Of a DNA stretch of 64,000 bases, positions 548 through 63,044 are shown piece after piece. Under the pieces are notes generated by a model, which was not told the DNA's origin, did no database searches, and saw only the letters and a program-made list of their open reading frames with translations. The position numbers and the translations under genes were made by a program. The DNA comes from Candidatus Nomurabacteria bacterium (GTDB lineage Bacteria > Patescibacteriota > Minisyncoccia > Phycocordibacterales > SBAW01), in the NCBI GenBank assembly GCA_020854065.1, contig JADZGF010000005.1, positions 8,925-72,924 of the forward strand, read 5' to 3'. Position 1 is the stretch's first letter; each line of letters starts with the position of its first letter.

Positions 548-1654
548 ATGCTCCCGCATCGTGTGTTAACAGTTGCAACAATTCCGGAAGGAGGAAGTCT
601 TTGGGCAACCGGTGGATATGGTAATGGTGTTATCGGCAATAATACCAACAATAACTACTCCTCTCCAGTACAAGTGGGCACACTCGCTACTTGGTCGCAG
701 GTGTCGGCGGGGACTTTACACACCACCGCTGTTAAAACCGACGGTACGTTATGGGCGTGGGGAAATAACGGCGCAGGGCAGGTTGGCGACAACACTGTTA
801 TAACTCGCTCCTCACCAGTACAAGTAGGTACCCTCGCCGATTGGTCACAAGTCTCTGCTGGAGGTACTCATACTGCCGCGGTGAAGACCGATGGCACCTT
901 ATGGGCATGGGGTCAAGGCACGACTGGTGTTGTTGGCGACAATGATAACGTTAATCGTTCCTCTCCGGTTAAAGTGGGCACTCTTTCTACCTGGTCGCAG
1001 GTTTCCGCGGGAGGATCCCACACTGCAGCCGTTAGAACCAACGGCACTTTATGGGCGTGGGGGCAAGGAACCTTAGGTCGCATTGGCCAAAATAACACCA
1101 TCACTCGCTCATCGCCGGTGCAGATTGGTGCACTCACCACCTGGTCACAAGTGTCGGCAGGAGGAAGCCACACTGCCGCAGTTAAGACTGACGGTACTCT
1201 GTGGGTGTGGGGGTATGGCACGTTTGGTGCAGTAGGCGATAATACGAACACGATCCGCTCCTCTCCAGTGCAAGTAGGCACGCTCACCACATGGTTGCAG
1301 GTATCGGCGGGGAAATATCACACTGCCGCGGTGAAGACTGACGGCACCATTTGGGCATGGGGATATAACAGCGCAGGGCAGGTTGGCGACAACTCCACGA
1401 CCACTCGCTCATCGCCGGTGCAAGTAGGGACGCTCACTACTTGGTCACAAGTTTCTCTTCCTGTGGGGGCGAGTCACACTACCGCGATTAAGACCGACGG
1501 GACGCTTTGGGCATGGGGGCTTAATAGCTTTGGTTTTCTCGGTGACAATACTGCTGATAGCCGTTCCTCACCTGTACAAATTGGTTCACGTGTTTGGTCG
1601 AACGTTGCCGCGGGGGGTCTACATACGGTGGCTGTTGGAGGGTCAGTAGGTTAA
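548..1654 (+). CDS. RCC1 (regulator of chromosome condensation)-like beta-propeller repeat protein
   Basis: Seven tandem roughly 53 aa repeats of the form DGTLWAWG.N..GQ.GDN....RSSPVQVG.L..WSQVSAG..HTAAVKT, which is the classic RCC1 blade signature. Confidence 0.85.
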   Translation: MLPHRVLTVATIPEGGSLWATGGYGNGVIGNNTNNNYSSPVQVGTLATWSQVSAGTLHTTAVKTDGTLWAWGNNGAGQVGDNTVITRSSPVQVGTLADWSQVSAGGTHTAAVKTDGTLWAWGQGTTGVVGDNDNVNRSSPVKVGTLSTWSQVSAGGSHTAAVRTNGTLWAWGQGTLGRIGQNNTITRSSPVQIGALTTWSQVSAGGSHTAAVKTDGTLWVWGYGTFGAVGDNTNTIRSSPVQVGTLTTWLQVSAGKYHTAAVKTDGTIWAWGYNSAGQVGDNSTTTRSSPVQVGTLTTWSQVSLPVGASHTTAIKTDGTLWAWGLNSFGFLGDNTADSRSSPVQIGSRVWSNVAAGGLHTVAVGGSVG

Positions 1655-1660
1655 AGTCTT

Positions 1661-3613
1661 TTGTTGCGGGAGTTACTCCTTTTTATATACAATGCCTGCA
1701 TGCACAAAGACCCACTCGACCTACAGCTCGAGGCGAGCATCCGCGGCGACATAGATGAAGCATGGCGTTTATCACAGCTTCTTGAGCAAGAGCGGCCCAC
1801 GGACAACCGCGCTGCATTTAACCGCGGATGGCACTACCTGCGTCTTGGTGATTTACAAAAAGGTTTGGCGCTAACTGAACGAGGAAGACTGGAGGGCGTG
1901 TATGGTTCTCCTGCGCTGAAGACAACCAAACCGCGTTGGCAGGGGGAAGATGTACGCGGCAAAACAATATTACTCCGTCTTGAAGGCGGCTTTGGTGATG
2001 AAATTGTTTTTTCTCGTTTTGCAAAGACTTTTGCCGACAGGGGGGCTCGTGTGATACTTGCAGCTTCAGAATCTATTGTTCCGCTACTCTCTCGGGTGTC
2101 GGGTGTTGCGCAGGCGATGCCACATCGGTTTGTTACCGATGATATGTTTGACTACTGGGTGCCGGGCATGGCCGCACCTCTTGATCTTGGTTTTACATAC
2201 GACACATTGCCAGGTGAGCCGTATGTAGTGCCGCGTGCCGACGCAGTGGCGCACTGGGCGCAGATAATAAAAAGTGACAAGCTAAAAGTAGGTATCCGTT
2301 GGTCAGGTAATCCCAAGTTTGAACACGAGCAACATCGACGCTTTCCTTTTGATGAGTTTTTACAGGCGGTATCACTACCAGGTGTAGAGCTATACAGTCT
2401 CCAGCGCGACCACGATATACGCGACTTGCCGGAACATGTCATTGATCTTCAAGACAAGCTCGTAAGCTGGGAAGATACTGCCGCGGCAATTGCTAACCTC
2501 GATTTAGTTATTACTTCCTGCACCTCTATTGCGCATCTTGCAGCAGCAATGGGGAAGGAAACATGGATTATCATCCCTATACTTCCGTATTACTTATGGG
2601 CCCTGCCAGGTGAAGTGAGTCCATGGTATAAAACCGCGAGACTCTTTCGACAAGAGGTGTTTAAAAACTGGAATGCACCTCTGCAAGGTATACATCGAGC
2701 GCTTGCAGAAAGGGTAGGAGTAGAAGCGCGGGTGGACTATACTAAACCATCCCAAAATCCTATGCCCCCAGCCCCTACACCAACACTTTTTCATAAACCC
2801 CACAGCGCACCGGTGCACAAAAACACCATGCATTTTGTAGCAGGATTGCCGCGTTCAGGCTCGACCGCACTTATGTCAGTCATGGCGCAAAATCCGCGCA
2901 TATTCGCATCTCCTATCTCAGGGCTTGCAGGTATATTTGGCGGTGTACACGCTAATTGGGATAAAAGTGAGTTTCATCAAGAGTTGCCCAACATGGCTGC
3001 AAAGAAACGTACTCTCCGTGCGTTGCTTGAGAACTATCACGAGACTGACCGACCTGTCATTTTAGACAAAGACCGAATATGGGTAATGCATATTGCACTC
3101 CTTGAAGAGGTGCTGGGTCGGAGAGTAAAGATCATTGTGCCGGTGCGGCCCTTGGTTGAGGTCATTGCCTCGTTTGAAGTGCTGCGCCAAAAGAATCCTC
3201 TTGAGTTTACGGGTGCTGATGACTCATTGGGCCCCAGCTCGACACTCGAGAGTCGCGCAGCATATTTTACCGACACCAAGGGACCTATTGGGGTGGCGTA
3301 TAACGCGATGAAAGATGCGGTAACTGCTGGATACTTAGACCGCATGTTGTTTGTGGACTATGGTCGCCTTACCTCTGCCCCTAAAATGCAGCTAAAGCGC
3401 ATTTATGAGTTTTTAGAAGAGCCGTACTTTGAGCATGACTTTAATAAAATTGAGCAGGTTGCTAAAGGTAATAGTCGTGGCGCGCATAAGTTCGAAGGGC
3501 TCCACGATATACGTCCACAGTTTAAAAAAGAGAGCCGCTCGGCGCGCGAGGTGCTTGGCGATGTATATGCTAAATATGACCACCCTGAGCCATGGGCGCC
3601 TTGGATACTCTAA
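1661..3613 (+). CDS. fusion protein: TPR-like N-terminus + GT9 (heptosyltransferase-fold) glycosyltransferase + C-terminal sulfotransferase domain
   Basis: The N-terminal half has GT9-like motifs (KTILLRLEGGFGDEIVFSRF near the start of the catalytic domain; ITSCTSIAHLAAAMGKETWII in the C-lobe). The C-terminal third has a sulfotransferase PAPS-binding 5'-PSB motif (GLPRSGSTAL) and a downstream 3'-PB-like region. Confidence 0.65.
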   Translation: MLRELLLFIYNACMHKDPLDLQLEASIRGDIDEAWRLSQLLEQERPTDNRAAFNRGWHYLRLGDLQKGLALTERGRLEGVYGSPALKTTKPRWQGEDVRGKTILLRLEGGFGDEIVFSRFAKTFADRGARVILAASESIVPLLSRVSGVAQAMPHRFVTDDMFDYWVPGMAAPLDLGFTYDTLPGEPYVVPRADAVAHWAQIIKSDKLKVGIRWSGNPKFEHEQHRRFPFDEFLQAVSLPGVELYSLQRDHDIRDLPEHVIDLQDKLVSWEDTAAAIANLDLVITSCTSIAHLAAAMGKETWIIIPILPYYLWALPGEVSPWYKTARLFRQEVFKNWNAPLQGIHRALAERVGVEARVDYTKPSQNPMPPAPTPTLFHKPHSAPVHKNTMHFVAGLPRSGSTALMSVMAQNPRIFASPISGLAGIFGGVHANWDKSEFHQELPNMAAKKRTLRALLENYHETDRPVILDKDRIWVMHIALLEEVLGRRVKIIVPVRPLVEVIASFEVLRQKNPLEFTGADDSLGPSSTLESRAAYFTDTKGPIGVAYNAMKDAVTAGYLDRMLFVDYGRLTSAPKMQLKRIYEFLEEPYFEHDFNKIEQVAKGNSRGAHKFEGLHDIRPQFKKESRSAREVLGDVYAKYDHPEPWAPWIL

Positions 3614-9401: not shown

Positions 9402-10792
9402 GATTGTTTTGGTTCGTCCTTAATTTGGGCGGCCCTGCGCCAATCGCTAAAGGGCTCGGCATCCTTCTTTTTATTATGCGCGAGTGTGGGAATAGGGCAG
9501 AGGGCTGGGACACTCCTTAGCTCATCGTATCCCTTTCGGGCTATGGACAGCAACTCTTGCGGGATAAACAACAATTCTTTGTGTGGGGTGCATACTCGCC
9601 AATGTTTTCGCGTGCCGAGTATGAGTTTAGAATCGACCAGTCTGTCCTTTTTATAATGCGTCGCATCATCTGCGGGGCACAAAAGGAGGGGACCAAGTTC
9701 TTTACTCAATAGTTTGTAGGTATAAAAAAGTTCATGCAGAGTCGATGCTTCATAGGCGTACTCCCCGGAAGCGAAAAACAAAAAATCGGCATCATGTGCG
9801 AGTGATACTGCCTGCTCCAAAAGATCTCCTTCCGGCGCGACTATCGTGTAGGGTACGGGGCACAATGACAGTATCTGCTCAACCTCACTTCCGTGAAGAT
9901 TCTCGGCTTCATATATAAAGGTGGCATTGATACGTACGGCGTTGTGCCTCTCGAGCAAGAGCAGCGAGTAGAGTAGTGACTTCAGTAGTTCGGGATATCC
10001 CTGGGGTGGTGCATACACAATATGGAGCGAAGGTTTTTCTGCGTCAGCGGGCAATGCGGCAGAGGCTTGTGGCACCGGCATGTCGTGGTGTTTGTAGTAC
10101 TCAGCGTTAAATACAAGGGCCCCTGATGAGTCAAGCGTGTAGGAAGAATGTCCGAAGTGTTTATGTTGATAGGCAAGTTTGCGCCCGACATCTTCGCGGC
10201 GCCACGTGTGATGTATAACTTTGGCAATCGAAGGTGGCACAATGCCGGGTATGCGAGTGTATAAAGAAGACCCGTCATTAAATGCTACTTCGTTGTCAAA
10301 TTTAAAGTTCCGGATGCCGCCGGAGCGATCGGTGCGGATAATGCGTGGGGGAAAGAATGCGCCAGGAGAGGAAACCCCAAACACGTGGTTATCAAAATGT
10401 ACGTGGTAGTAGTCAAACTGGGGAGTTTTTTCTACAAACGCAATAATGTCTTTTATCTGTTGCGCTGTGTAATGCTCGTCGCCATCAAGGATCCATATAG
10501 CATCGACTCCTTTTGCAAGAAGTGCATAGAGGACGAGTGATCGAACCTCTTTTTCATACATTGGTTGCTCATCAAGAAAGAGTGCATCAAAATGGCGACT
10601 GTTTGCCCGGAGTGCTTCTCGAGTTGTTTGGTCGTTGTCTGGGTAACCAAGTTCGGCGTACTCCTTAAACTGCACGCTTGCAGCGGCAAGAACAATATCG
10701 TATCCCTGCGCTTTAACCTCAAGCCATGGGGTGATAGTTCTCTCTAACAAGTCTGGTGCACCATAAAAACATCCCAAGACGCCGATTTTCAT
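9398..10792 (-). CDS. putative glycosyltransferase (GT-A-like, DXD motif ILDGDEH) with a C-terminal domain of unknown function
   Basis: A DGDEH acidic motif after a Rossmann-like N-terminus. Weak similarity only. Sits inside the glycosyltransferase cluster. Confidence 0.45.
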   Translation of the reverse strand: MKIGVLGCFYGAPDLLERTITPWLEVKAQGYDIVLAAASVQFKEYAELGYPDNDQTTREALRANSRHFDALFLDEQPMYEKEVRSLVLYALLAKGVDAIWILDGDEHYTAQQIKDIIAFVEKTPQFDYYHVHFDNHVFGVSSPGAFFPPRIIRTDRSGGIRNFKFDNEVAFNDGSSLYTRIPGIVPPSIAKVIHHTWRREDVGRKLAYQHKHFGHSSYTLDSSGALVFNAEYYKHHDMPVPQASAALPADAEKPSLHIVYAPPQGYPELLKSLLYSLLLLERHNAVRINATFIYEAENLHGSEVEQILSLCPVPYTIVAPEGDLLEQAVSLAHDADFLFFASGEYAYEASTLHELFYTYKLLSKELGPLLLCPADDATHYKKDRLVDSKLILGTRKHWRVCTPHKELLFIPQELLSIARKGYDELRSVPALCPIPTLAHNKKKDAEPFSDWRRAAQIKDEPKQS

Positions 10793-11988: not shown

Positions 11989-14895
11989 ATGCGGCTTATG
12001 CCAAATCATCCGCCCCATGTTTTGCGCTACGCGGCGCTTCTAACGGGTGGAGTAATGCTCCTGGTTATGGTGGCGCTCGTAATGTCGGGTAATGTTCCCT
12101 TCGCTCCGAAATTCGTTAAAAATCTAGCAGGTACACTTGAAAGAAACCCAACCTCTCAGGCTGCGGGTATACCTTTTTATGCTGACCATTTTCCGATCTA
12201 CAATGGAGGCGACCCAAATCTGAGGCTGGTGAATGTTATCTTACCTGGTCACCCGGTACCCAATAACTGCGGACTTAATACCTGTGGAAATACAGGAAGC
12301 TGCAGCAATCCCTACATAGGACTCATTAGTATAAGCGATAGCTCCGGCACTAACGGACATGCCGCGCGCGTAAGATTCAACAATACTGTACAATACTTGC
12401 CGTCAACGGGTGTGTTTCAATCGCCATCCGGCAGTACTTTAACACTCAATTGGTCTTGTCAGGACAAGGTTATCAGGCATCAGCTTGACGCATATAATTG
12501 CAGTAACTATGTCGCCGATGGTGTCTGGTACTTCGACAGCGCTGTCGTAACGGGCCCTAGTGGCACCTTGTACAGCGGAACCAACAGGATCGGAAGCGTG
12601 CAAGTCCCTTTTAGTGGGAGTGTGGGCCAAACATTTAACTATACGTTGACGTGTCAAAGAAAAACCAACTCGTGGAGTGCCAGTGTTTCAGCTAGAATAA
12701 TGCCCCCTGCTCCTACTCTTAGTATTACGGGCCAAGTCGGTGCTTCTTCACCGGTAAGCGGTACGGTAAACATGACAGTGGGGCAGTCGGTGCTCATTAC
12801 AGGCACCTTTTCCGCTGCTTCAGGAGATTCCTTAACGGCCACTGCACTCAACGACTCTTCAAACAACGCGCTTCCTGGTGTGTCCAACACAACTAATACT
12901 TCACCAAAGACCTACACTTTTACTCCAACGACGGCGGGCACGTATGTTTTCTACCCAGCAGTTAGAACGACCTTGCATCCAACGTGGAATAATCATGGCA
13001 GTGCACTTACGGTACAAGTGGCCGCCGCTCCTTCAGGGTTCACCCTCACAGTCGACTCAAACGGCTCCTCAGGCGTTGCTATTGGCGGTACTTCAGGCTA
13101 CACCGGTACCACTAACTACACTAAGGTGGGTATCGCAAACGGGACGTCGGTTCAGCTTATCGCTCCTGCTACTACAGACACTGCCTACTTCTCTGGTTGG
13201 AACAACTGTAATTCAGGCAGTGGCACCACATGTACTGTCATCGTGAACTCCAGTAAGACGGTGACGGCAAACTTCGGCACTGGAGGTTACACACTCACCG
13301 TCAACACCTCCGGCGCGTCAGGGATATCCATAAGCGGTTCTCCGACACTTACTGGCGGTACTACTAACTACGTCCGCTCAGGTATTCCTGGCGGAAGTGT
13401 CATTGTCCTCACAGCACCTTCGACTTCGGGTACCGCCACCTTCTCCTCCTGGAGCGGCTGTACTTCGGCAAGTGGGGTCACATGCAACATTACAATGACG
13501 GGCGGGAATAAAACGGTAACGGCAAGCTATACCGCAACCGACCTTTGCCCATCTCTCAGCGGCACACAAACCTCATACCCATCAGGTTCGAGCCCGGCTA
13601 ACTCATGCACCTGTCCTAGTGGCTACACGTATAACAGTGTCTCCAACACGTGTGTTGCGCCGGCGACTGATCTCTGTCCATCACTTGCGGGAACACAAAC
13701 GTCATATCCGTCAGGTTCAAGTCCAGCAAACTCCTGCACCTGCCCCAGTGGGTATACGTACGACAGCGGTTCTAACGCTTGTGTTGCTCCGGACCTCTGC
13801 CCATCACTTGCAGGAACACAGACCTCATATCCATCAGGTTCAAGTCCAGTAAACTCCTGCACCTGCCCAAGTGGGTATACGTACAACAGTGGCTCCAACG
13901 CTTGTGTTGTCGCGAGCGACTCGTGTACGACCATGTATCCAAGTTATTACGGTCCTGTTGTTGTGACGGGTACTACTGCAGGGACTGTGTATGGTAGTGG
14001 TCCGTACCATTTTATCTCTACCACTGCCAAAGCGGCAGTACATGCTGGTATTATCTCTGTCGGACAGACTGCTACTATTATGCGCACAAGCGCTGGTACA
14101 GTAAGTTCTTTCACTGGCTCTACACAAAATGGAATCACTTCCTTTACGACTGGGTCCTCTGCGTGTGGTGTAACACTCTCTAACGCGGCGCCATCAATAC
14201 CTACCTTGACTCTTGCTTCGACGCAGAGTGCTGCCGAGGGTGGGTCAACGGGTATTTTTACTGTTACTGCAAACCAGACTTCAAGCAGCAATATTGCCGT
14301 TAACTACACTGTTACAGGCGGCACTGCCACCGAAGGTGTCGATTACACTTCGCTTTCGGGCTCAGTTACTCTTCCGGCGTACGAGACGAGCGTAACGATA
14401 CTGGTGAGTGCCATTAACGACACTGAGTACGAGGGTACTGAGACAATAGGATTGTCATTGGATTCTTCTTCCAGTTATGACCGTGGGAGTCCGTATACTG
14501 CGACCATGAACCTTATCGACAACGAAACAGCAGCTTCGCTCCCAACATTCTCCACCTGTGCAGACACCGGGACTCCTCCTACCTGCTCGTTGGCACTACT
14601 TTCAGGTCTTACTTCAGTTAATTGGATTAGACAGGGTCTTCCTGTAACTGTGTCCTGGAATGTAGACGGACTCGTCACTGGTTCTCCGGGTAATACTTGT
14701 ACGATACGATCAATTCCTTCTTCAGCATTCACCACGCGAAGCTGGCCACAGACCGGGAGTACGTGGGTGGGCACTGCAACGTCAAATAACATTATACAGA
14801 CTACGATCTTTACCCTCACCTGCACAGCGCCAAATGGTATAGAAACTACAACTGCACGAACGGTGCGCGTGGTGCCTCGCTTCAATGAGATCTAG
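11989..14895 (+). CDS. large multi-domain surface protein: N-terminal TM anchor, two InlB B-repeat-like domains, three Cys-rich roughly 40 aa repeats, Calx-beta-like domain
   Basis: TM helix at residues roughly 15-35. Two roughly 80 aa repeats of the form YTLTV..SG..G...SG......GT.NY.......G..V.L.A......F..W..C.SG..C....N..KTVTA.F (InlB B-repeat pattern). Three DLCPSLxGTQTSYPSGSSPxNSCTCPSGYTY(N/D)SxSNxCV repeats. A Calx-beta-like stretch VNYTVTGGTATEGVDYTSLSGSVTLPAYETSVTILVSAINDTEYEGTETIGLSL. Confidence 0.75.
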   Translation: MRLMPNHPPHVLRYAALLTGGVMLLVMVALVMSGNVPFAPKFVKNLAGTLERNPTSQAAGIPFYADHFPIYNGGDPNLRLVNVILPGHPVPNNCGLNTCGNTGSCSNPYIGLISISDSSGTNGHAARVRFNNTVQYLPSTGVFQSPSGSTLTLNWSCQDKVIRHQLDAYNCSNYVADGVWYFDSAVVTGPSGTLYSGTNRIGSVQVPFSGSVGQTFNYTLTCQRKTNSWSASVSARIMPPAPTLSITGQVGASSPVSGTVNMTVGQSVLITGTFSAASGDSLTATALNDSSNNALPGVSNTTNTSPKTYTFTPTTAGTYVFYPAVRTTLHPTWNNHGSALTVQVAAAPSGFTLTVDSNGSSGVAIGGTSGYTGTTNYTKVGIANGTSVQLIAPATTDTAYFSGWNNCNSGSGTTCTVIVNSSKTVTANFGTGGYTLTVNTSGASGISISGSPTLTGGTTNYVRSGIPGGSVIVLTAPSTSGTATFSSWSGCTSASGVTCNITMTGGNKTVTASYTATDLCPSLSGTQTSYPSGSSPANSCTCPSGYTYNSVSNTCVAPATDLCPSLAGTQTSYPSGSSPANSCTCPSGYTYDSGSNACVAPDLCPSLAGTQTSYPSGSSPVNSCTCPSGYTYNSGSNACVVASDSCTTMYPSYYGPVVVTGTTAGTVYGSGPYHFISTTAKAAVHAGIISVGQTATIMRTSAGTVSSFTGSTQNGITSFTTGSSACGVTLSNAAPSIPTLTLASTQSAAEGGSTGIFTVTANQTSSSNIAVNYTVTGGTATEGVDYTSLSGSVTLPAYETSVTILVSAINDTEYEGTETIGLSLDSSSSYDRGSPYTATMNLIDNETAASLPTFSTCADTGTPPTCSLALLSGLTSVNWIRQGLPVTVSWNVDGLVTGSPGNTCTIRSIPSSAFTTRSWPQTGSTWVGTATSNNIIQTTIFTLTCTAPNGIETTTARTVRVVPRFNEI

Positions 14896-36780: not shown

Positions 36781-37824
36781 TTAGTAGAAGCTGCGGGAGG
36801 CAGTGTTGTTTACCTCATTCATCTCCGGGACGATATTGTATGGATCCACATGGATCGTTACGCTCTGTGATCCGTAGTCGTAGTTGTATACGTTGTAGCT
36901 TGAATGGCATGGTGCAACGTAGCTTGCGTTCGGACCGTAGTAGCTTGGTGGGCAGTAGCTGTTCGTCCAGTTGCCGGTTGCTTGATATCCCATTGTAAAG
37001 ACAATGCGATCGCCAGGGTAGAGTGCCTGCTGCGTTGGCGATTGATAGGTGTATCCACCATCGATCGGCAAGTTTGCGGTGAAGAACCAATTTGCTGGAG
37101 CAACATTGGTGCCAATGTTTTGCACGGTAAACTGGATCGCTGCACGTCCACTAGAGACGTATGCTGAGTTAATACCAACTTGGAGGTCAGAGTATCCGTA
37201 GAGGTTTTGGGTACGGCCACTTGGGTAATATGTTGAAGCAGGTTTTGCAGTCGAGGTTGCAGGTTTTGGAGTGGTGGTCGTTGTCTTTGCTGCTGCTACC
37301 GTCGTGCCGCCGGTCGAAGTTGCCGTGATTGCGCCGGTGCTGTCAGTTGCGGCAACGCTCACACCGATTGGTGTAGCAGTGGTGCCTGCGAGCGTTGGGG
37401 TGATGCGCACGGAGCTGGTTGCACCATCGAGTTTAAACGGCGTATCGCAAGCAACCTTTTGCGCTGCCTTACCCGGCAGTGTTACCTCAAAGGAAACCCC
37501 TTCTTTACACTGATATGCCAAACCATAGGTACGGCTGCCGGATGCGTTGCGGCTTGCCCACGAAAGAGTGAAGGCATCACCTGAAGTAGTTTGTGCAGGC
37601 AAAGAGAGTGTTACTGCCTCTTTTGCGGGCTCACCCTTAAAGATCCCACCGATTGAACCGGTTACATTGCCCACCAAAGAGGGGAGCCAAAATGCGAGCT
37701 GGATAATACCCCAGGCGCCTAAGAGTAAAACGACGATAAGTCCTAACACTGCGACGATGCGCAGCACGTTATCTTTAAACGTATGCATATCCGGCAAGGT
37801 ACCACTAGTGAATAAACTTGTCAA
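36781..37824 (-). CDS. N-terminally anchored surface protein with Thr/Ala-rich linker and C-terminal CARDB-like domain
   Basis: TM helix LRIVAVLGLIVVLLLGAWGII. The low-complexity T/A/S stretch (TTTTTPKPATSTAKPAST) looks like a glycosylation-linker. The C-terminus AAIQFTVQNIGTNVAP....DPYNIVPEMNEVNNTASRSF matches the CARDB pattern (V.N.G...A......D..N.V.EsNE.NN). Confidence 0.6.
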   Translation of the reverse strand: MTSLFTSGTLPDMHTFKDNVLRIVAVLGLIVVLLLGAWGIIQLAFWLPSLVGNVTGSIGGIFKGEPAKEAVTLSLPAQTTSGDAFTLSWASRNASGSRTYGLAYQCKEGVSFEVTLPGKAAQKVACDTPFKLDGATSSVRITPTLAGTTATPIGVSVAATDSTGAITATSTGGTTVAAAKTTTTTPKPATSTAKPASTYYPSGRTQNLYGYSDLQVGINSAYVSSGRAAIQFTVQNIGTNVAPANWFFTANLPIDGGYTYQSPTQQALYPGDRIVFTMGYQATGNWTNSYCPPSYYGPNASYVAPCHSSYNVYNYDYGSQSVTIHVDPYNIVPEMNEVNNTASRSFY

Positions 37825-37870: not shown

Positions 37871-38485
37871 ATGAAATTCCTCGGATTTCTCGCAACATTT
37901 GTCATCCTCTTTTTTGTTACCGTCGCCTTTTTGGGCGTGGTTGATGCGCTGCCTGAGCCAATTGGGGGAAATGGCGAGTCTGTACCGCAAGAAGAAAACC
38001 GTGCGTTTCGGGTGGAGAGTGACAGTACGCTCCCAGAAGGGGGCGAGTTTCCTACCCGCGTTGTCTCCAAGGCAATCGACATGGATGTAACAGTCTTAAA
38101 CACTCCTTCGACTGACGTTGTTGCCCTTGATGCTGATTTACTCAAAGGAGCGGTGCGCTATCCAAGTTCCGGCAGACTTGGCACAAATGGCACCGTGCTT
38201 TTGCTTGGTCATAGCTCATATTTGCCGGTGGTTCGCAACCAAAATTACAAAGCGTTTAATAATATTCAAAAACTCAAAGCAGGTGATGAGATTTCAGTCT
38301 ACTCAGACGCGCGCGAGTACCGCTATGAGGTCACGGGCGTACGACTTGCCGATGCAAGTGAAGATGTCGTAGAGTTGCCCACGGACGGCATGTACCTTAC
38401 CTTGGTAACCTGCAATACCTTTGCCGCAAAGACTGCACGCTATGTAGTCACGGCAAAACTCTCTTCGGTAAGCGAAGTTCAGTAA
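37871..38485 (+). CDS. sortase (transpeptidase) family protein
   Basis: N-terminal TM anchor, conserved His in VLLLGHSSY, the catalytic TLVTC motif (TLxTC) and the conserved Arg in TARYVVTAKL. Confidence 0.75.
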   Translation: MKFLGFLATFVILFFVTVAFLGVVDALPEPIGGNGESVPQEENRAFRVESDSTLPEGGEFPTRVVSKAIDMDVTVLNTPSTDVVALDADLLKGAVRYPSSGRLGTNGTVLLLGHSSYLPVVRNQNYKAFNNIQKLKAGDEISVYSDAREYRYEVTGVRLADASEDVVELPTDGMYLTLVTCNTFAAKTARYVVTAKLSSVSEVQ

Positions 38486-38565: not shown

Positions 38566-38868
38566 ATGGCGAAAGCCACTAAGAAAGATGACGAAGTGGA
38601 CTCAATGGCTCAAGAAGCACATGAAGTGATCGAAGGGCTTCTTCAAAAGCTCAAAAGCTCGGAAGACGAGAAGGCTAAGATCAAAGAGAACAATGAGAAG
38701 GCCAAAGGCATACTTAAGTCCGCTATCGAGTTAGGGAGAAAATCCCTCTTGGTATTGTTCTTTATAGGCACCTTCGCGCTCACTCTCTACTACATGCCGA
38801 AGAGTGCTCCGACGGAGGAGGTGGCGGCTAACCCGCCTGCACATTTTCTCCTGAGCTTGGTCGCATAG
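38566..38868 (+). CDS. small membrane protein, hypothetical
   Basis: 100 aa with a Lys/Glu-rich N-terminus and one TM helix (LLVLFFIGTFALTLYY). Confidence 0.35.
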   Translation: MAKATKKDDEVDSMAQEAHEVIEGLLQKLKSSEDEKAKIKENNEKAKGILKSAIELGRKSLLVLFFIGTFALTLYYMPKSAPTEEVAANPPAHFLLSLVA

Positions 38869-39147
38869 CGGCTGAGCTAAAGGCCGATATTGCTGCGGTT
38901 GTTGCGCAGAATAACGACCTCCAGAAGGCACTTAATGCCCTCAGTGAACGACTGAAGGCTTCACAGGAAGAAGCCTTGCAGGACAAGGCGGAATGGGGTA
39001 AAACCCTAACAGATTTGGAGGCCCGTCAAGAGGGGCTTGACAAAAGGCTAACTTCGGTATATACTGATCTCAGCGAAACAGTAAAGCAGGTCGAGGGTTT
39101 GAAAGCCCAAATTTCGACTCTGCCAAAACAAGAGGAGATCAGAGAAA

Positions 39148-39392
39148 TGAAGAAGCAGCTTTTAGCGGTTTGCGCCGCTTTCGTTGCTCTTGCTGGCGCC
39201 GGTTGTACGCAGTATGGCGTGCAGGCGAATGCTCAGTCTTATCACCACAACAACCGTGGCCCGATCGCCCCACAGCGACTCATCACTGAGCACGCACCGC
39301 GGGAGGAAGGCCAGTTCCGCTGCAATGCAGATGGGACTCCTAGTGGGGGACCGGGTACTGGTACTGGCTGGTGCATGCGCCGAAGTCAGTAA
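39148..39392 (+). CDS. small lipoprotein (lipobox LAGAGC)
   Basis: MKKQLLAVCAAFVALAGAG|C carries a type II signal peptide with a lipobox. A strong SD (AAGAGGAG) sits 9 nt upstream of ATG 39148. The ORF track frame is open upstream to 38976 (MQDK...), giving an alternative longer product with a coiled-coil N-extension. Confidence 0.5.
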
Positions 39393-39400
39393 CATCGTGC

Positions 39401-39440
39401 GGGGCTTGTCCATGGACAAGCCCCCACAATTCTTTTCGTT
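39401..39440 (+). terminator. putative rho-independent terminator
   Basis: GGGGCTTGTCC-ATG-GACAAGCCCC perfect hairpin followed by a T-rich stretch (TTCTTTTCG). Confidence 0.55.
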
Positions 39441-39525
39441 AGAGACTTTTGTAAACCTTAGATGAGGTTTCCAATATGACTCTCGCGATTCGAGAGTAAC
39501 AGCTTTACAGACAAGGAGTAAGCTG

Positions 39526-39948
39526 ATGATCAAGTACTTTGCAATCGTGTTAGTGGTCGCAGGATTCTGTTCTACCGCTCAGGCTGAGCAGAACCGGCTC
39601 GACCAAGCTGTCGAGGCGTGCAAATATCGCGGTGCCATCCTCAAACAGAGGATTGCGACCGGTCAACTGTCTCGTGCTGAAAACGAACAGTATTTCGACA
39701 AAATGACCGCTGATCAATTTCGCCAGTTTCTGGTGAAGTGTCATCAGACGGACAACCGTTTCGTCGAGCCTCGGGCACCTAAAAATACAATCATGGCGTG
39801 TCCCTCTGGTCCTCCGCAACAAATTGTTGCTCGGCCTGGTGGCGCACCCATGAGCGAATGCTACAGGTGCAATGCAGAAACCAAGTTGCCCGATATTAAC
39901 GGCACGAAAATCTGCGGACCGCTGCACGCATCTCATCGCAAACAATGA
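39526..39948 (+). CDS. small secreted Cys-rich protein, hypothetical
   Basis: Signal peptide MIKYFAIVLVVAGFCSTAQA, and six Cys in the mature part. Confidence 0.45.
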   Translation: MIKYFAIVLVVAGFCSTAQAEQNRLDQAVEACKYRGAILKQRIATGQLSRAENEQYFDKMTADQFRQFLVKCHQTDNRFVEPRAPKNTIMACPSGPPQQIVARPGGAPMSECYRCNAETKLPDINGTKICGPLHASHRKQ

Positions 39949-40077
39949 TGGTCCATGGGCCATCTACTGGGGTTACTTCGGTAGCCCCTCATTCTCTGGT
40001 CTTAATAGATTTCTATTGAGTCCGGAGCGTGAGTATTCATTATTAGGTTCGTCGTTTACAATTAATTAATAGCAATT

Positions 40078-41190
40078 ATGACTCGCTATAACCACTTCGT
40101 TCGGAATAGCACCATCGCACTCCTTGCGTTTATGGCACTTGCTCTTCCGACTGCCTTTGTCCAAGCGGACTTCGGCGATGATATTGGTGTGTGGGATATG
40201 GGTGGCGGTTACGACTACTATCCGGATACGTATACTGATTACTACCCGGACACGTACACTGACTATTACCCAGATACGTACACTGATTATTACCAGGATT
40301 CGTACTCTGATTACTACACTGCTCCTTCGTACAGCTCAGGTTACTCGTCTGGTGGCTCGTACTCGTATCCTTCGTACAGCTCGGGTTACTCGTACGGTTC
40401 TTCGTACAGCACCCCTTCGTACTCGGTACCGTCGTACAGCTACTCCAATACGAATGTTGAGACTTGCAATGCTACAAATAGCTGCAACGACAACAGCGTA
40501 GAGGACAACGATACGTACGAGGATAACGACACTCATACGGAGACTTGTTCGGCAACGAACAGCTGTAACGATAACAGCAACCACTCGTACGATTACACGT
40601 CGAACTACACGTCGACTTGGACTGACAACAGTGTCCACGACTACAGCTCTACGTGGATTGACAACTCGGTGTTCCACAGCGATGACCACTCGGTGGTAAA
40701 CATCCAGAACCCGGCTCCACAGCCATACATCGTATACAAAGACCGCGAGCGTGATCGTGACCGTGATCGTGATGACGATCGTCACTACGACCGCGACTAC
40801 GATGTCTGCTACAACCTTCCAGGTTTCCAGGACTACGTACCAAATGGTTACTATGTCTCTGGTGGTAACTGCTTCTACCAGCAGTACAACACTCCCGCTC
40901 CGTACGTATCTCTCTCGGCTGTGCCATACACTGGCCTCGAGATGGGTCCTACCGCAGCCGCTCTCTACTGGGGCTTCCTGGTACTGTGGTGCGCAGTAGC
41001 GGCATACCTCATCGCAGTGAAGAAGGTTCAGAACAAGCTCGTGAATGGTCTCAACACCTTCCTCTTCCCGGCAACTGCTCATACTTCGAGCCATGCTCAG
41101 GTATCGGTTTCCGAGACCAAAGAGGTAGCAAAGACCAATACCGATGGTATTGACCCCTTCATCGCTTCGCAGCTCGGCAAATATCGCTAA
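40078..41190 (+). CDS. secreted low-complexity protein (YYPDTYTD x4, Ser/Tyr-rich, CN(A/D)TNSCNDNS x2, RD-repeat) with C-proximal TM helix
   Basis: Signal peptide ALLAFMALALPTAFVQA. In-frame tandem repeats are visible at the nucleotide level at 40207-40310. A hydrophobic helix AAALYWGFLVLWCAVAAYLIAV followed by KK sits 55 aa from the C-terminus. Confidence 0.55.
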   Translation: MTRYNHFVRNSTIALLAFMALALPTAFVQADFGDDIGVWDMGGGYDYYPDTYTDYYPDTYTDYYPDTYTDYYQDSYSDYYTAPSYSSGYSSGGSYSYPSYSSGYSYGSSYSTPSYSVPSYSYSNTNVETCNATNSCNDNSVEDNDTYEDNDTHTETCSATNSCNDNSNHSYDYTSNYTSTWTDNSVHDYSSTWIDNSVFHSDDHSVVNIQNPAPQPYIVYKDRERDRDRDRDDDRHYDRDYDVCYNLPGFQDYVPNGYYVSGGNCFYQQYNTPAPYVSLSAVPYTGLEMGPTAAALYWGFLVLWCAVAAYLIAVKKVQNKLVNGLNTFLFPATAHTSSHAQVSVSETKEVAKTNTDGIDPFIASQLGKYR

Positions 41191-41243
41191 GCGCGATTAA
41201 AGCGGATGCAGGGCTCACGGCTCTAGACTCCAAAACATTGTAG

Positions 41244-41284
41244 CAAAACCCCCCGGCACTACGCCGGGGGGTTTTGCATTTTCT
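41244..41284. terminator. bidirectional rho-independent terminator
   Basis: AAAACCCCCCGGC-ACTAC-GCCGGGGGGTTTTGCATTTT between convergent genes (41190 + / 41296 -). Confidence 0.7.
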
Positions 41285-41295
41285 CATGTGGAGCT

Positions 41296-42561
41296 TTATG
41301 CCCTCGTCTTAATCTCCTCAACCAATTTTGAAACAATCTCAGTAACAGGGAGTACTCCTACTTTACCTTTGTCGCGACTCTCTAAACTTGCGGTGCCTGC
41401 CGATACTTCAGCGTCACCAATAACGAGCGTGTAGGGGATTTTTTCTGCTTTAGCTTCACGGATCTTCTTACCCAAACTCTCGCCACCTGCATCAATGTCG
41501 GCACGGATTCCTGCATCTTTAAGTTGGGCAAGCACCTCTTCTGCAAATGCAGCGTGCCCTTCACCGATAGGGAGGACGCGTGCTTGTACCGGAGAGAGCC
41601 AGGTAGGGAAGGCGCCTGCGTAGTGTTCAATCAAGAAAGCCATGATGCGCTCAATGGCGCCGATTGAAGAACGGTGTATTACAAATGCGCGATGTGGTTT
41701 GCCGTCCTCACCTACATAGGTCAAATCGAAGCGGTCTGGCATGCAGAAGTCGTATTGGACGGTAAAGGCAGTGTCTTCCTTGCCGTTTACGTTTTTCATC
41801 TGCACATCGATCTTGGGGCCGTAAAATGCTGCCTCATCTTTTGCTTCTTCGAATTCAACACCACGGCTTACCATGTGCTTGCGCAAGAGATCCTCAGCTT
41901 TTTCCCACGCAGCATCGTTCTTGTAGTATTTCTCGCTGTTACTGCGATCGCCAAGCGAAAGGCGGAAGCGGTAATGCTCGCCCATCTTAAGTCCAAATAC
42001 GCCAGCCATGTGCTCGATAAGATCAAGAGCTTTGCCGGCTTCTTCAACTGCTTGTTCTTCGCTCGTACAAATAATGTGCGCGTCTGCGAGGCAGAAGGTG
42101 CGTACACGCTGGAGACCCATAAGTTCACCAGACTGTTCGTAGCGGTACAGCTGCGCTAGCTCAGCGATACGCATAGGAAGTTCGCGGTAGCTGTGGGGAC
42201 GCGAGAGGTAGAGTTGGAAGTGATGCGGACAGGTCATCGGTCGGAGCATGAATTGCTCGTCGTCGATAACGATAGGTGCGTACATGCTGTCCTTGTAGTG
42301 TGGGTAGTGACCTGATTTTTCATAGAGCTCTAGCCGAGCCAGGTCTGGTGTGTGTACGTGGCTGTAGCCACGTTTGGTCTCCTCCTCAATTACAAAGTTC
42401 TCAAGCTCGCGTTTAACGATTGCTCCTTTAGGCAAGAACATTGGCAGTCCTTTGCCGATAGTCTGGTCGATATAAAAGAGTCCCAGCTCGGGACCTAGTT
42501 TTTTATGATCGCGCTCCTCCATATATTCTTCATATACTACCTCTTTAAGGTGTTTTGGCAA
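41296..42561 (-). CDS. thrS: threonine--tRNA ligase, minimal form (catalytic + anticodon-binding domains only; no TGS/editing domains)
   Basis: ERDHKKLGPELGLF (ThrRS RDHRKLG motif), class II motifs 2/3, MTCPHH (Zn-binding CPxH), and a C-terminal anticodon-binding domain. 421 aa versus roughly 640 for canonical bacterial ThrRS. The ORF-track start at 42561 is TTG. The first in-frame ATG is at 42522 (MEERDHKKLG). Confidence 0.8.
   Translation of the reverse strand: MPKHLKEVVYEEYMEERDHKKLGPELGLFYIDQTIGKGLPMFLPKGAIVKRELENFVIEEETKRGYSHVHTPDLARLELYEKSGHYPHYKDSMYAPIVIDDEQFMLRPMTCPHHFQLYLSRPHSYRELPMRIAELAQLYRYEQSGELMGLQRVRTFCLADAHIICTSEEQAVEEAGKALDLIEHMAGVFGLKMGEHYRFRLSLGDRSNSEKYYKNDAAWEKAEDLLRKHMVSRGVEFEEAKDEAAFYGPKIDVQMKNVNGKEDTAFTVQYDFCMPDRFDLTYVGEDGKPHRAFVIHRSSIGAIERIMAFLIEHYAGAFPTWLSPVQARVLPIGEGHAAFAEEVLAQLKDAGIRADIDAGGESLGKKIREAKAEKIPYTLVIGDAEVSAGTASLESRDKGKVGVLPVTEIVSKLVEEIKTRA

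Positions 42562-56195: not shown

Positions 56196-63044
<6,849 letters not shown>

Follow-up and report, generated by a model that had tools for sequence, protein, structure and literature searches.

In a 64,000-nucleotide stretch of contig JADZGF010000005.1 from Candidatus Nomurabacteria bacterium (the window), the gene at 40078..41190 (+) encodes a secreted protein of 370 residues with a conserved C-terminal module built around the tetrapeptide PYTG. PYTG is invariant across its family, the tail resembles a variant cell-wall sorting signal, and the gene is consistently accompanied by a sortase gene; together, these features suggest a dedicated surface-anchoring system that has not been described before. 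On balance, we lean toward the view, built on sequence comparisons, that the gene encodes a dedicated substrate of the sortase specified 1.6 kb upstream and that its product forms a variable surface coat. The protein is deposited as MCC7500473.1, a "hypothetical protein" of a "Candidatus Nomurabacteria" metagenome-assembled genome (identified via the cluster table). A first-pass annotation of the same DNA had described a secreted or surface-exposed, compositionally biased protein, and this description holds: a signal peptide precedes an ectodomain rich in Tyr, Ser, and Asp. It had also noted PYTG followed by a transmembrane (TM) helix and KK near the C terminus. This arrangement is present and, judging from the family alignment, is the key conserved element of the family; however, the helix and KK are not terminal, as 54 residues lie beyond them. 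The sortase gene was overlooked.

The same annotation had found nothing like this protein familiar, whereas homolog searches place it in a large conserved family of Parcubacteria. Its C-terminal 171 residues retrieved 41 proteins, one of them named Kaiserbacteria, and a full phmmer scan of 1.84 billion representatives gave 272 matches at E <= 1e-3, which belong to Parcubacteria wherever they are named. The homolog search that had been proposed recovered a family of 272 cluster representatives; only the C-terminal ~95 residues are common throughout, and the low-complexity part is not. No homologs outside Parcubacteria surface proteins were found in representative, genome, and PDB searches, and a PDB sequence search with the protein itself returned nothing meaningful. 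Pfam and NCBIfam gave no family at E <= 0.1 except for a spurious transporter match, and Pfam detected no recognizable wall-binding domain (SLH, LysM, choline-binding, etc.) in the protein.

The shared module reads PY(V/I)(T/S)L(S/A)xVPYTGL(D/E)LGPxGTxxYWxFLVLWCLxAAYLI(A/V)VK(K/R)VQN, followed by a variable linker and a terminal (D/E)xF(I/V)xxQ(I/V)xR. The P, Y, T, and G are invariant in all 177 aligned members, and the flanking and TM residues are nearly so. The residue before PYTG is V in 146 of the 177 and otherwise A, T, I, or L; the K and K/R after the TM helix are kept in 170 or more. The distance from PYTG to the protein end has a median of 94 residues and a maximum of 289. In the protein encoded in the window, the sorting-signal-like module (PYVSLSAVPYTG and then LEMG, the TM helix, and KKVQNK) spans 40900..41037. 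It begins with the segment PYVSLSAVPYTGLEMG (residues 275-290, 40900..40947), within which PYTG occupies residues 283-286 (40924..40935) and VPYTG residues 282-286. The TM helix, a run of ~24 hydrophobic residues, follows at residues 291-314 (40948..41019), and KK at residues 315-316 (41020..41025). The remaining 54 residues (317-370, 41026..41187) end in GIDPFIASQLGKYR; the variable linker, this terminal motif, and the stop codon make up the part of the cytoplasmic tail at 41038..41190.

Typical family members are 275-300 residues long. They consist of a signal peptide, lineage-specific Tyr/Asp/Pro/Ser/Gly tandem repeats, a Gly/Ser/Tyr region, an NTNVNTNTCTxGSCNTxINAPT segment, a PVY-rich stretch, and the C-terminal module. 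In other members, the module is attached to Ig-like, PKD, cohesin, or CPNxxGxQ-repeat ectodomains; the PKD and cohesin ectodomains of distant members place the N-terminal part outside the cell. In P0128 and in the proteins at L074 3136..5940, L078 2..2299, L080 8807..10873, and L081 60..1946, the module is followed by a conserved cytoplasmic domain of ~250 residues with the motifs TIDDIVKGLSRE, ALDDAYRARV, AIDSSYS, and AKLALTRAL, which has no Pfam match.

The sortase gene, at 37871..38485 (+), encodes a membrane-anchored enzyme with an N-terminal TM helix, a His in GHSS, a Cys in TLVTC, and a conserved Arg. It matches PF04203 at 2.9e-21 (75.9 bits, cutoff 26.6), its H113, C180, and R189 are invariant across 18 sortase orthologs, and its nearest PDB relatives are 2kw8 and 4d70. 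Scanning the module alignment against 185,579 species genomes yielded 79 loci. The named genomes among these are all Parcubacteria/Paceibacterota (Adler-, Kaiser-, and "Nomura"-bacteria), joined by unnamed Patescibacteria; about 25 further records bear the submitters' title "uncultured Candidatus Saccharibacteria" and have the same syntenic locus. Of the loci with 5 kb or more of upstream sequence, all 48 have the sortase gene on the same strand, at a gap of 10-4011 bp (median 1464); in the 16 loci without it, the contig ends less than 1.7 kb upstream. A search from the sortase side yielded 27 metagenome loci that extend 4 kb or more downstream; in 26 of these, the PYTG module lies 1.3-4.7 kb downstream of the sortase gene, and the sole exception (L165) is rearranged beside a phage-like gene. 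Sortase and PYTG genes are immediate neighbors in the most distant loci (L082, L084-L086). Two module genes stand in tandem in 14 loci, and several of the second copies end 42-58 residues after PYTG; as far as their sequences tell, these short copies resemble a classical sorting signal. Beyond the signal described here, scanning all six frames of the window for P-x-T-G combined with a TM helix turned up no credible candidate. The window also encodes an SLT-type transglycosylase, by which peptidoglycan is implied. We considered and rejected the idea that the module is a portable anchor used by many proteins per genome: nearly all genome matches map to the same syntenic locus, and genomes carry one or two such genes each.

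Divergent from the sortase gene is a gene for a CARDB-like surface protein with an N-terminal TM anchor (36781..37824, -) and a weak Pfam CARDB match at its C terminus; almost every related locus has an ortholog of it in the corresponding place. Its N-terminal TM segment (LRxxAVxGLxxxLLLGAWGIIQLAF) is much more conserved than its ectodomain, which parallels the conserved TM helix of the PYTG protein. Between the sortase and PYTG genes of the window lie three small variable genes for Cys-containing membrane or secreted proteins (38566..38868, 38976..39392, and 39526..39948, all +), none of which matches a family in Pfam or NCBIfam. Relatives have one to five unrelated or weakly related small genes at this position, and four of them share the order CARDB-like TM protein (divergent), sortase, one to five small variable genes, and PYTG protein. 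One open reading frame (ORF) of a distant Paceibacterota genome, situated at another locus (L081 4691..6700), combines a cohesin domain, the PYTG module and its TM helix, a cytoplasmic loop, a second TM helix, and a CARDB domain. The PYTG protein and the CARDB-like membrane protein are thus fused in this single case, which is possibly an assembly error and hints that the two work together.

The signal peptide of the PYTG protein, as read from the sequence, is of the Sec type and covers residues 1-30 (40078..40167), a position shared across the family. It has a basic n-region and a hydrophobic core, ends in AFVQA before DFG (that is, VQA before D), and contains a helix at residues 4-27 in an AlphaFold2 (AF2) model. 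Downstream are three exact YYPDTYTD units, mapped to residues 47-70 (40216..40287), and a degenerate fourth unit, YYQDSYSD, at residues 71-78 (40288..40311). The first-pass annotation had counted four exact octapeptides, of which three stand, and had taken them for exact 24-nucleotide DNA repeats, which they are not: neighboring DNA copies of the exact octapeptide differ at four synonymous positions. TRF reports the array at 40216..40317 with a period of 24, 4.2 copies, 83% matches, and a score of 134, far beyond chance. The Ser/Tyr/Gly-rich block that had been described is indeed there, at residues 82-123 (40321..40446), followed by a region with a duplicated Asn-rich two-Cys module (NTNVETCNATNSCNDNS ... 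ETCSATNSCNDNS, 40447..40578). Both previously reported ETC(N/S)ATNSCNDNS copies were located in this region, at residues 128-140 (40459..40497) and 155-167 (40540..40578); they differ at 9 of 39 nucleotides and by one amino acid. Most relatives have a single Asn-rich two-Cys copy, NTNVNTNTCTxGSCNTxINAPT, and the protein of the window has two.

Two further elements had gone unnoticed: a STW(T/I)DNSV duplication at residues 179-198 (40612..40671) and a single CxNxPGxQxxxPxGYxxxxGxC hairpin motif at residues 244-265 (within 40804..40875), where AF2 models a β-hairpin at residues 258-267. Tandem arrays of this motif occur in other surface proteins of Parcubacteria (P0122, P0128, and P0067). Between these elements, the Arg/Asp dipeptide (RD) tract that had been reported is confirmed as DRERDRDRDRDDDRHYDRDYD at residues 222-242 (40741..40803), with units of 6 or 12 nucleotides at 80-88% matches. 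Whereas P0001/L087, a close relative, shares the tract, most family members have the PVY-rich stretch in its place.

Tyr makes up 17% of the ectodomain, and Asp and Ser 15% each; its 41 acidic residues far outnumber the 8 basic ones, and it has one Lys. In 105 of 152 family members, the ectodomain has no Lys at all. The AF2 model of the full protein, run on a 17-sequence alignment, has a predicted local distance difference test (pLDDT) value below 50 for residues 29-241, a helix at residues 287-329 with pLDDT 84-93, and a short helix at residues 360-369. The ectodomain is thus predicted to be disordered as well as acidic and nearly Lys-free. In this light, the likeness to eukaryotic prion-like domains that had been suggested holds in part: residues 82-123 are rich in [G/S]Y[G/S] and disordered in the model, but the protein is secreted and has no homology to known members of that class.

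Comparison with the closest relative, L087, locates the variable part of the gene. Flanking DNA of the two genomes is 83-85% identical, whereas window positions 39066..40300 have no detectable nucleotide similarity to L087 8030..9673. Within this segment fall the end portion of one small gene, the small gene after it, and the 5' part of the PYTG gene with its signal peptide and repeats. Immediately downstream, the Ser/Tyr-rich block (window 40301..40511) is 95% identical to L087, above the level of the flanks, and where the window has YYPDTYTD three times, L087 has GGDYGYDSYDYY four times (a period of 12 residues versus 8). At the protein level, the middle block is 100% and the C terminus 86% identical to L087. 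The first 80 residues are closer to P0043, a more distant relative (53% identity, score 240), than to L087 (40%, score 106); the distal cassette is therefore mosaic. Tandem repeats of at least three copies occur in 67 of 152 members, mostly beginning within the first 100 residues; the units are of the Tyr/Asp/Pro/Ser type, and both units and periods are lineage-specific. In L087, a run of N at 9887..9985 falls exactly on the duplicated ETCxATNSCNDNS module: the internal duplication breaks the short-read assembly there, and the gene is consequently called as a 160-residue fragment (P0001).

The ORF is a genuine, conserved gene. Eight housekeeping genes of the window served as the codon-usage reference, and against it the annotated frame scores highest of the six (-4.06 versus -4.33 to -4.70 per codon); its codon bias exceeds theirs (TAC 83%, GGT 70%). 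Homologs exist, and the octapeptide copies diverge at synonymous sites only. Over 69 codons of the Ser/Tyr block, L087 differs by 10 synonymous and no nonsynonymous changes.

Taken as a sortase substrate, the protein could be anchored as follows. The Sec system would export the precursor by means of its signal peptide (residues 1-30), and the C-terminal TM helix and the KK stop-transfer signal would keep it membrane-bound, its ectodomain facing outward. The sortase would then recognize (L-S-x-V)-P-Y-T-G just outside the membrane and cleave between Thr285 and Gly286; the candidate target segment is ...LSAVPYTGLEMG..., and PYVSLSAVPYTGLEMGP is a candidate substrate peptide. There is a precedent for such a site in C. 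difficile SrtB, which accepts xPxTG with a residue other than Leu in the first position, (S/P)PXTG, and cleaves between T and G (PMC4155245). The ectodomain of ~255 residues would be moved to the cell wall or another acceptor, whereas the membrane stub (residues 286-370) would stay behind, and its conserved cytoplasmic end, GIDPFIxSQ, may have an additional docking or localization role. Once anchored, the acidic, Lys-poor Tyr/Ser/Asp/Asn chain could form a flexible coat or adhesive layer on the Parcubacteria cell. A role as a coat, or as the matrix or adhesive protein already proposed in the first-pass annotation, is the most plausible function. After C-terminal anchoring, the N-terminal Tyr/Asp tandem repeats would be the exposed, outward-facing, and fast-evolving tip, in keeping with their rapid turnover.

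The features expected of a sortase substrate are largely in place: a Sec signal peptide, an LPXTG-like pentapeptide, a hydrophobic segment followed by basic residues, and a sortase nearby. On the other hand, several points weigh against this reading. The sortase is below the cutoff of all curated classes A-F and GN (best class E, 40 bits versus 160), and no curated sorting-signal model in Pfam or NCBIfam matches the protein. Instead of ending shortly after the charged tail, the protein continues for 54 residues past KK; the conservation of its TM helix goes well beyond what ordinary sortase substrates show and suggests a lasting role in the membrane; a terminal D-x-F-[IVLM]-x-x-Q-[IVL] motif is kept in 165 of 177 members; and in distant members, the short tail is replaced by the folded-looking cytoplasmic domain of ~250 residues. 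Moreover, GyrB, a class II aminoacyl-tRNA synthetase (ThrRS-like), DnaE, and RNase HII are syntenic in essentially all loci, so the loci are not independent, and the sortase linkage is partly explained by shared ancestry. Because the conserved helix and cytoplasmic tail are unlike those of a classical substrate, we keep alive the rival view of an uncleaved type I membrane tether, which we rate as possible, although doubtful: the disordered ectodomain would lie outside, PYTG would be a juxtamembrane structural or recognition motif, and the sortase would serve other proteins. The conserved TM helix may then pack against a membrane partner, such as the TM segment of the CARDB-like protein, and the terminal GIDPFIxSQ may dock a cytoplasmic partner. 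The L081 fusion fits this view, as does a sortase linkage that may be inherited rather than functional. What speaks for the sortase-substrate reading instead is that P, T, and G of the sortase pentapeptide are invariant at the right distance before the TM helix and basic residues, that neither the locus nor the window offers another candidate substrate, that sortase and PYTG genes stay together where the intervening genes vary or are absent, and that short-tailed paralogs without the terminal motif exist. An extended version of this reading, to which we give rather little credence, has cleavage between Thr and Gly yielding two functional products in a Parcubacteria-specific sortase system: a wall-fixed Tyr/Asp coat with a hypervariable tip and a signaling or localizing stub, with the CARDB-like protein as a third partner. 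The cytoplasmic peptide or domain of the stub would then couple surface-protein processing to a cytoplasmic machine for localization, signaling, or envelope assembly.

The remaining alternatives concern the repeats and the ectodomain. Slippage in the 24-nucleotide or RD repeats, changing their number and thereby switching or varying expression of a phase-variable antigen, had been proposed in the first-pass annotation. The tandem repeats do sit in a surface protein, the N-terminal cassettes are wholly different in two genomes with flanks ~84% identical, and the N terminus is mosaic, nearer to P0043 than to the nearest relative. However, every repeat unit is a multiple of three nucleotides, so the frame cannot switch; the DNA copies are 83% alike with synonymous differences, so there has been no recent slippage or homogenization; and relatives differ by replacement of the whole cassette, with L087 showing another period rather than another copy number. 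We therefore rejected slippage-based phase variation on unit length and synonymous divergence, and consider it very unlikely. We give slightly less credence still to a calcium-, metal-, or mineral-binding surface protein, a role compatible with either mode of anchoring, in which the acidic Tyr/Asp repeats would chelate cations or nucleate mineral. The strongly acidic ectodomain (41 acidic versus 8 basic residues, 15% Asp) and the Tyr- and Asp-rich repeat units of the family fit it; against it, a Pfam scan and a PDB search revealed no known Ca-binding motif or domain, and many members bear Gly-rich or Ig-like/PKD ectodomains instead. The acidic stretch is thus replaceable across the family, which places the conserved function in the anchor and not in cation binding. 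A noncoding repeat region miscalled as a gene, which the first-pass annotation had linked to lack of conservation and anomalous codon usage, has a negligible probability. Low complexity and the lack of Pfam, NCBIfam, or PDB matches would suit it, but 272 homologous representatives share the architecture, changes follow a purifying pattern, the annotated frame is the best of six, and the gene has a strong terminator downstream and a conserved promoter-like element upstream; homologs and the purifying pattern led us to reject it.

This promoter-like element is part of a conserved noncoding element at 39994..40062 (+), directly 5' of the PYTG gene, that was delineated in an alignment of upstream regions. 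It comprises a 12-bp inverted repeat (CTCTGRNCTTAA at 39994..40005 and TTGAGNNYGGAG at 40016..40027), a CGTGAGTA box (CGTGRGTA), and the hexamers TTCATT (40036..40041) and TACAAT (40057..40062). The hexamers have an N15 spacing in the window, and relatives have a near-consensus TTGACA-N16-TAnAAT promoter. A search for the exact pattern of the element recovered 28 loci, each time in front of the PYTG gene, and the window has a single copy; an Rfam search of 39994..40062 gave no match. For the element, 94% of cells are paired, with three compensatory pairs, and a hairpin is likelier than a dimer binding site because the loop varies from 4 to 18 nucleotides between genomes. Downstream of the gene is an intrinsic terminator at 41243..41277 (+) with a 15-bp stem (11 GC pairs) and a T-run.

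Several other genes of the window deserve mention. Next to the PYTG gene, the class II aminoacyl-tRNA synthetase (ThrRS-like by its motifs; 41296..42561, -) is a short form of 421 residues. Those at the same position in L001 and L005 have 579-603 residues, and N-terminal domains are thus apparently missing from the window version. A 2282-residue ORF at 56196..63044 (+) contains all RpoB domains (residues 20-1048) followed by all RpoC domains (residues 1067-2162), that is, a fused rpoB-rpoC. Three proteins have eukaryote-like domains: an RCC1-repeat protein with seven repeats (548..1654), a 650-residue sulfotransferase-domain protein (1661..3613), and a 968-residue protein with cEGF, LCCL, and Calx-beta domains (11989..14895). 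Any action of this sulfotransferase on the Tyr/Asp-rich surface protein would be purely speculative.

The cell envelope and host-contact surface of the candidate phyla radiation (CPR)/Patescibacteria are almost uncharacterized, and sortase substrates and their recognition motifs have not been described there, even though sortases are enriched in CPR (PMC6744442). In the literature on sortases in Parcubacteria/Patescibacteria and on PYTG/VPYTG, we found no description of this motif, module, family, or locus. In ~77 species-level genomes, a single locus each supplies a concrete candidate pair of enzyme and substrate, one sortase and an invariant PYTG signal, and the PYTG protein may be a major part of the surface that diversifies rapidly. 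Should the sortase indeed cut at PYTG, it would bring a new specificity to sortase-mediated ligation, Parcubacteria surface proteins could be annotated by this marker, and there would be a handle on how these episymbionts vary their exposed surface.

Among known systems, classical sortase substrates share with this protein the signal peptide, xPxTG, a hydrophobic helix of ~24 residues, Lys-Lys, and a nearby sortase with His, Cys, and Arg. The PYTG protein differs from them in its VPYTG with an invariant Tyr, its strongly conserved flanks (LSxV...L(D/E)LG) and TM helix, and the 54 or more cytoplasmic residues that lead to a conserved terminal motif; its cleavage is a prediction. A second parallel is the class GN sortase (TIGR03784) of marine proteobacteria, in which one sortase goes with a single adjacent target protein. 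The locus described here likewise couples a divergent sortase with one or two neighboring putative substrate genes, once per genome, and has an unusually well-conserved signal motif; however, phylum, motif, and substrate are different, and the window sortase scores 33 bits against a cutoff of 158. For a membrane fragment with a function of its own after cleavage, there is precedent in the C-peptide of streptococcal LPXTG adhesins, a membrane stub left by SrtA and sensed by an intramembrane two-component system, although such stubs are short and not conserved as a family, unlike the PYTG stub with its conserved cytoplasmic tail or domain. The ectodomain can be likened to FUS-type [G/S]Y[G/S] domains in its SYSSGYS-type composition and predicted disorder; yet it is extracellular and strongly acidic, lacks RNA-binding domains, and has no homology to them. 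By analogy, it is also similar to plant extensins, glycine- and proline-rich proteins, and other Tyr-rich extracellular matrix proteins, which are likewise secreted, repetitive, disordered, and rich in Tyr, Ser, Gly, and Pro (compare the PVY repeats in relatives); in the reading preferred here, it would be built into a wall as they are. There is no homology to these plant wall proteins, and the protein described here is bacterial, with a sorting-signal-like tail; cross-linking through Tyr would be a hypothetical further parallel.

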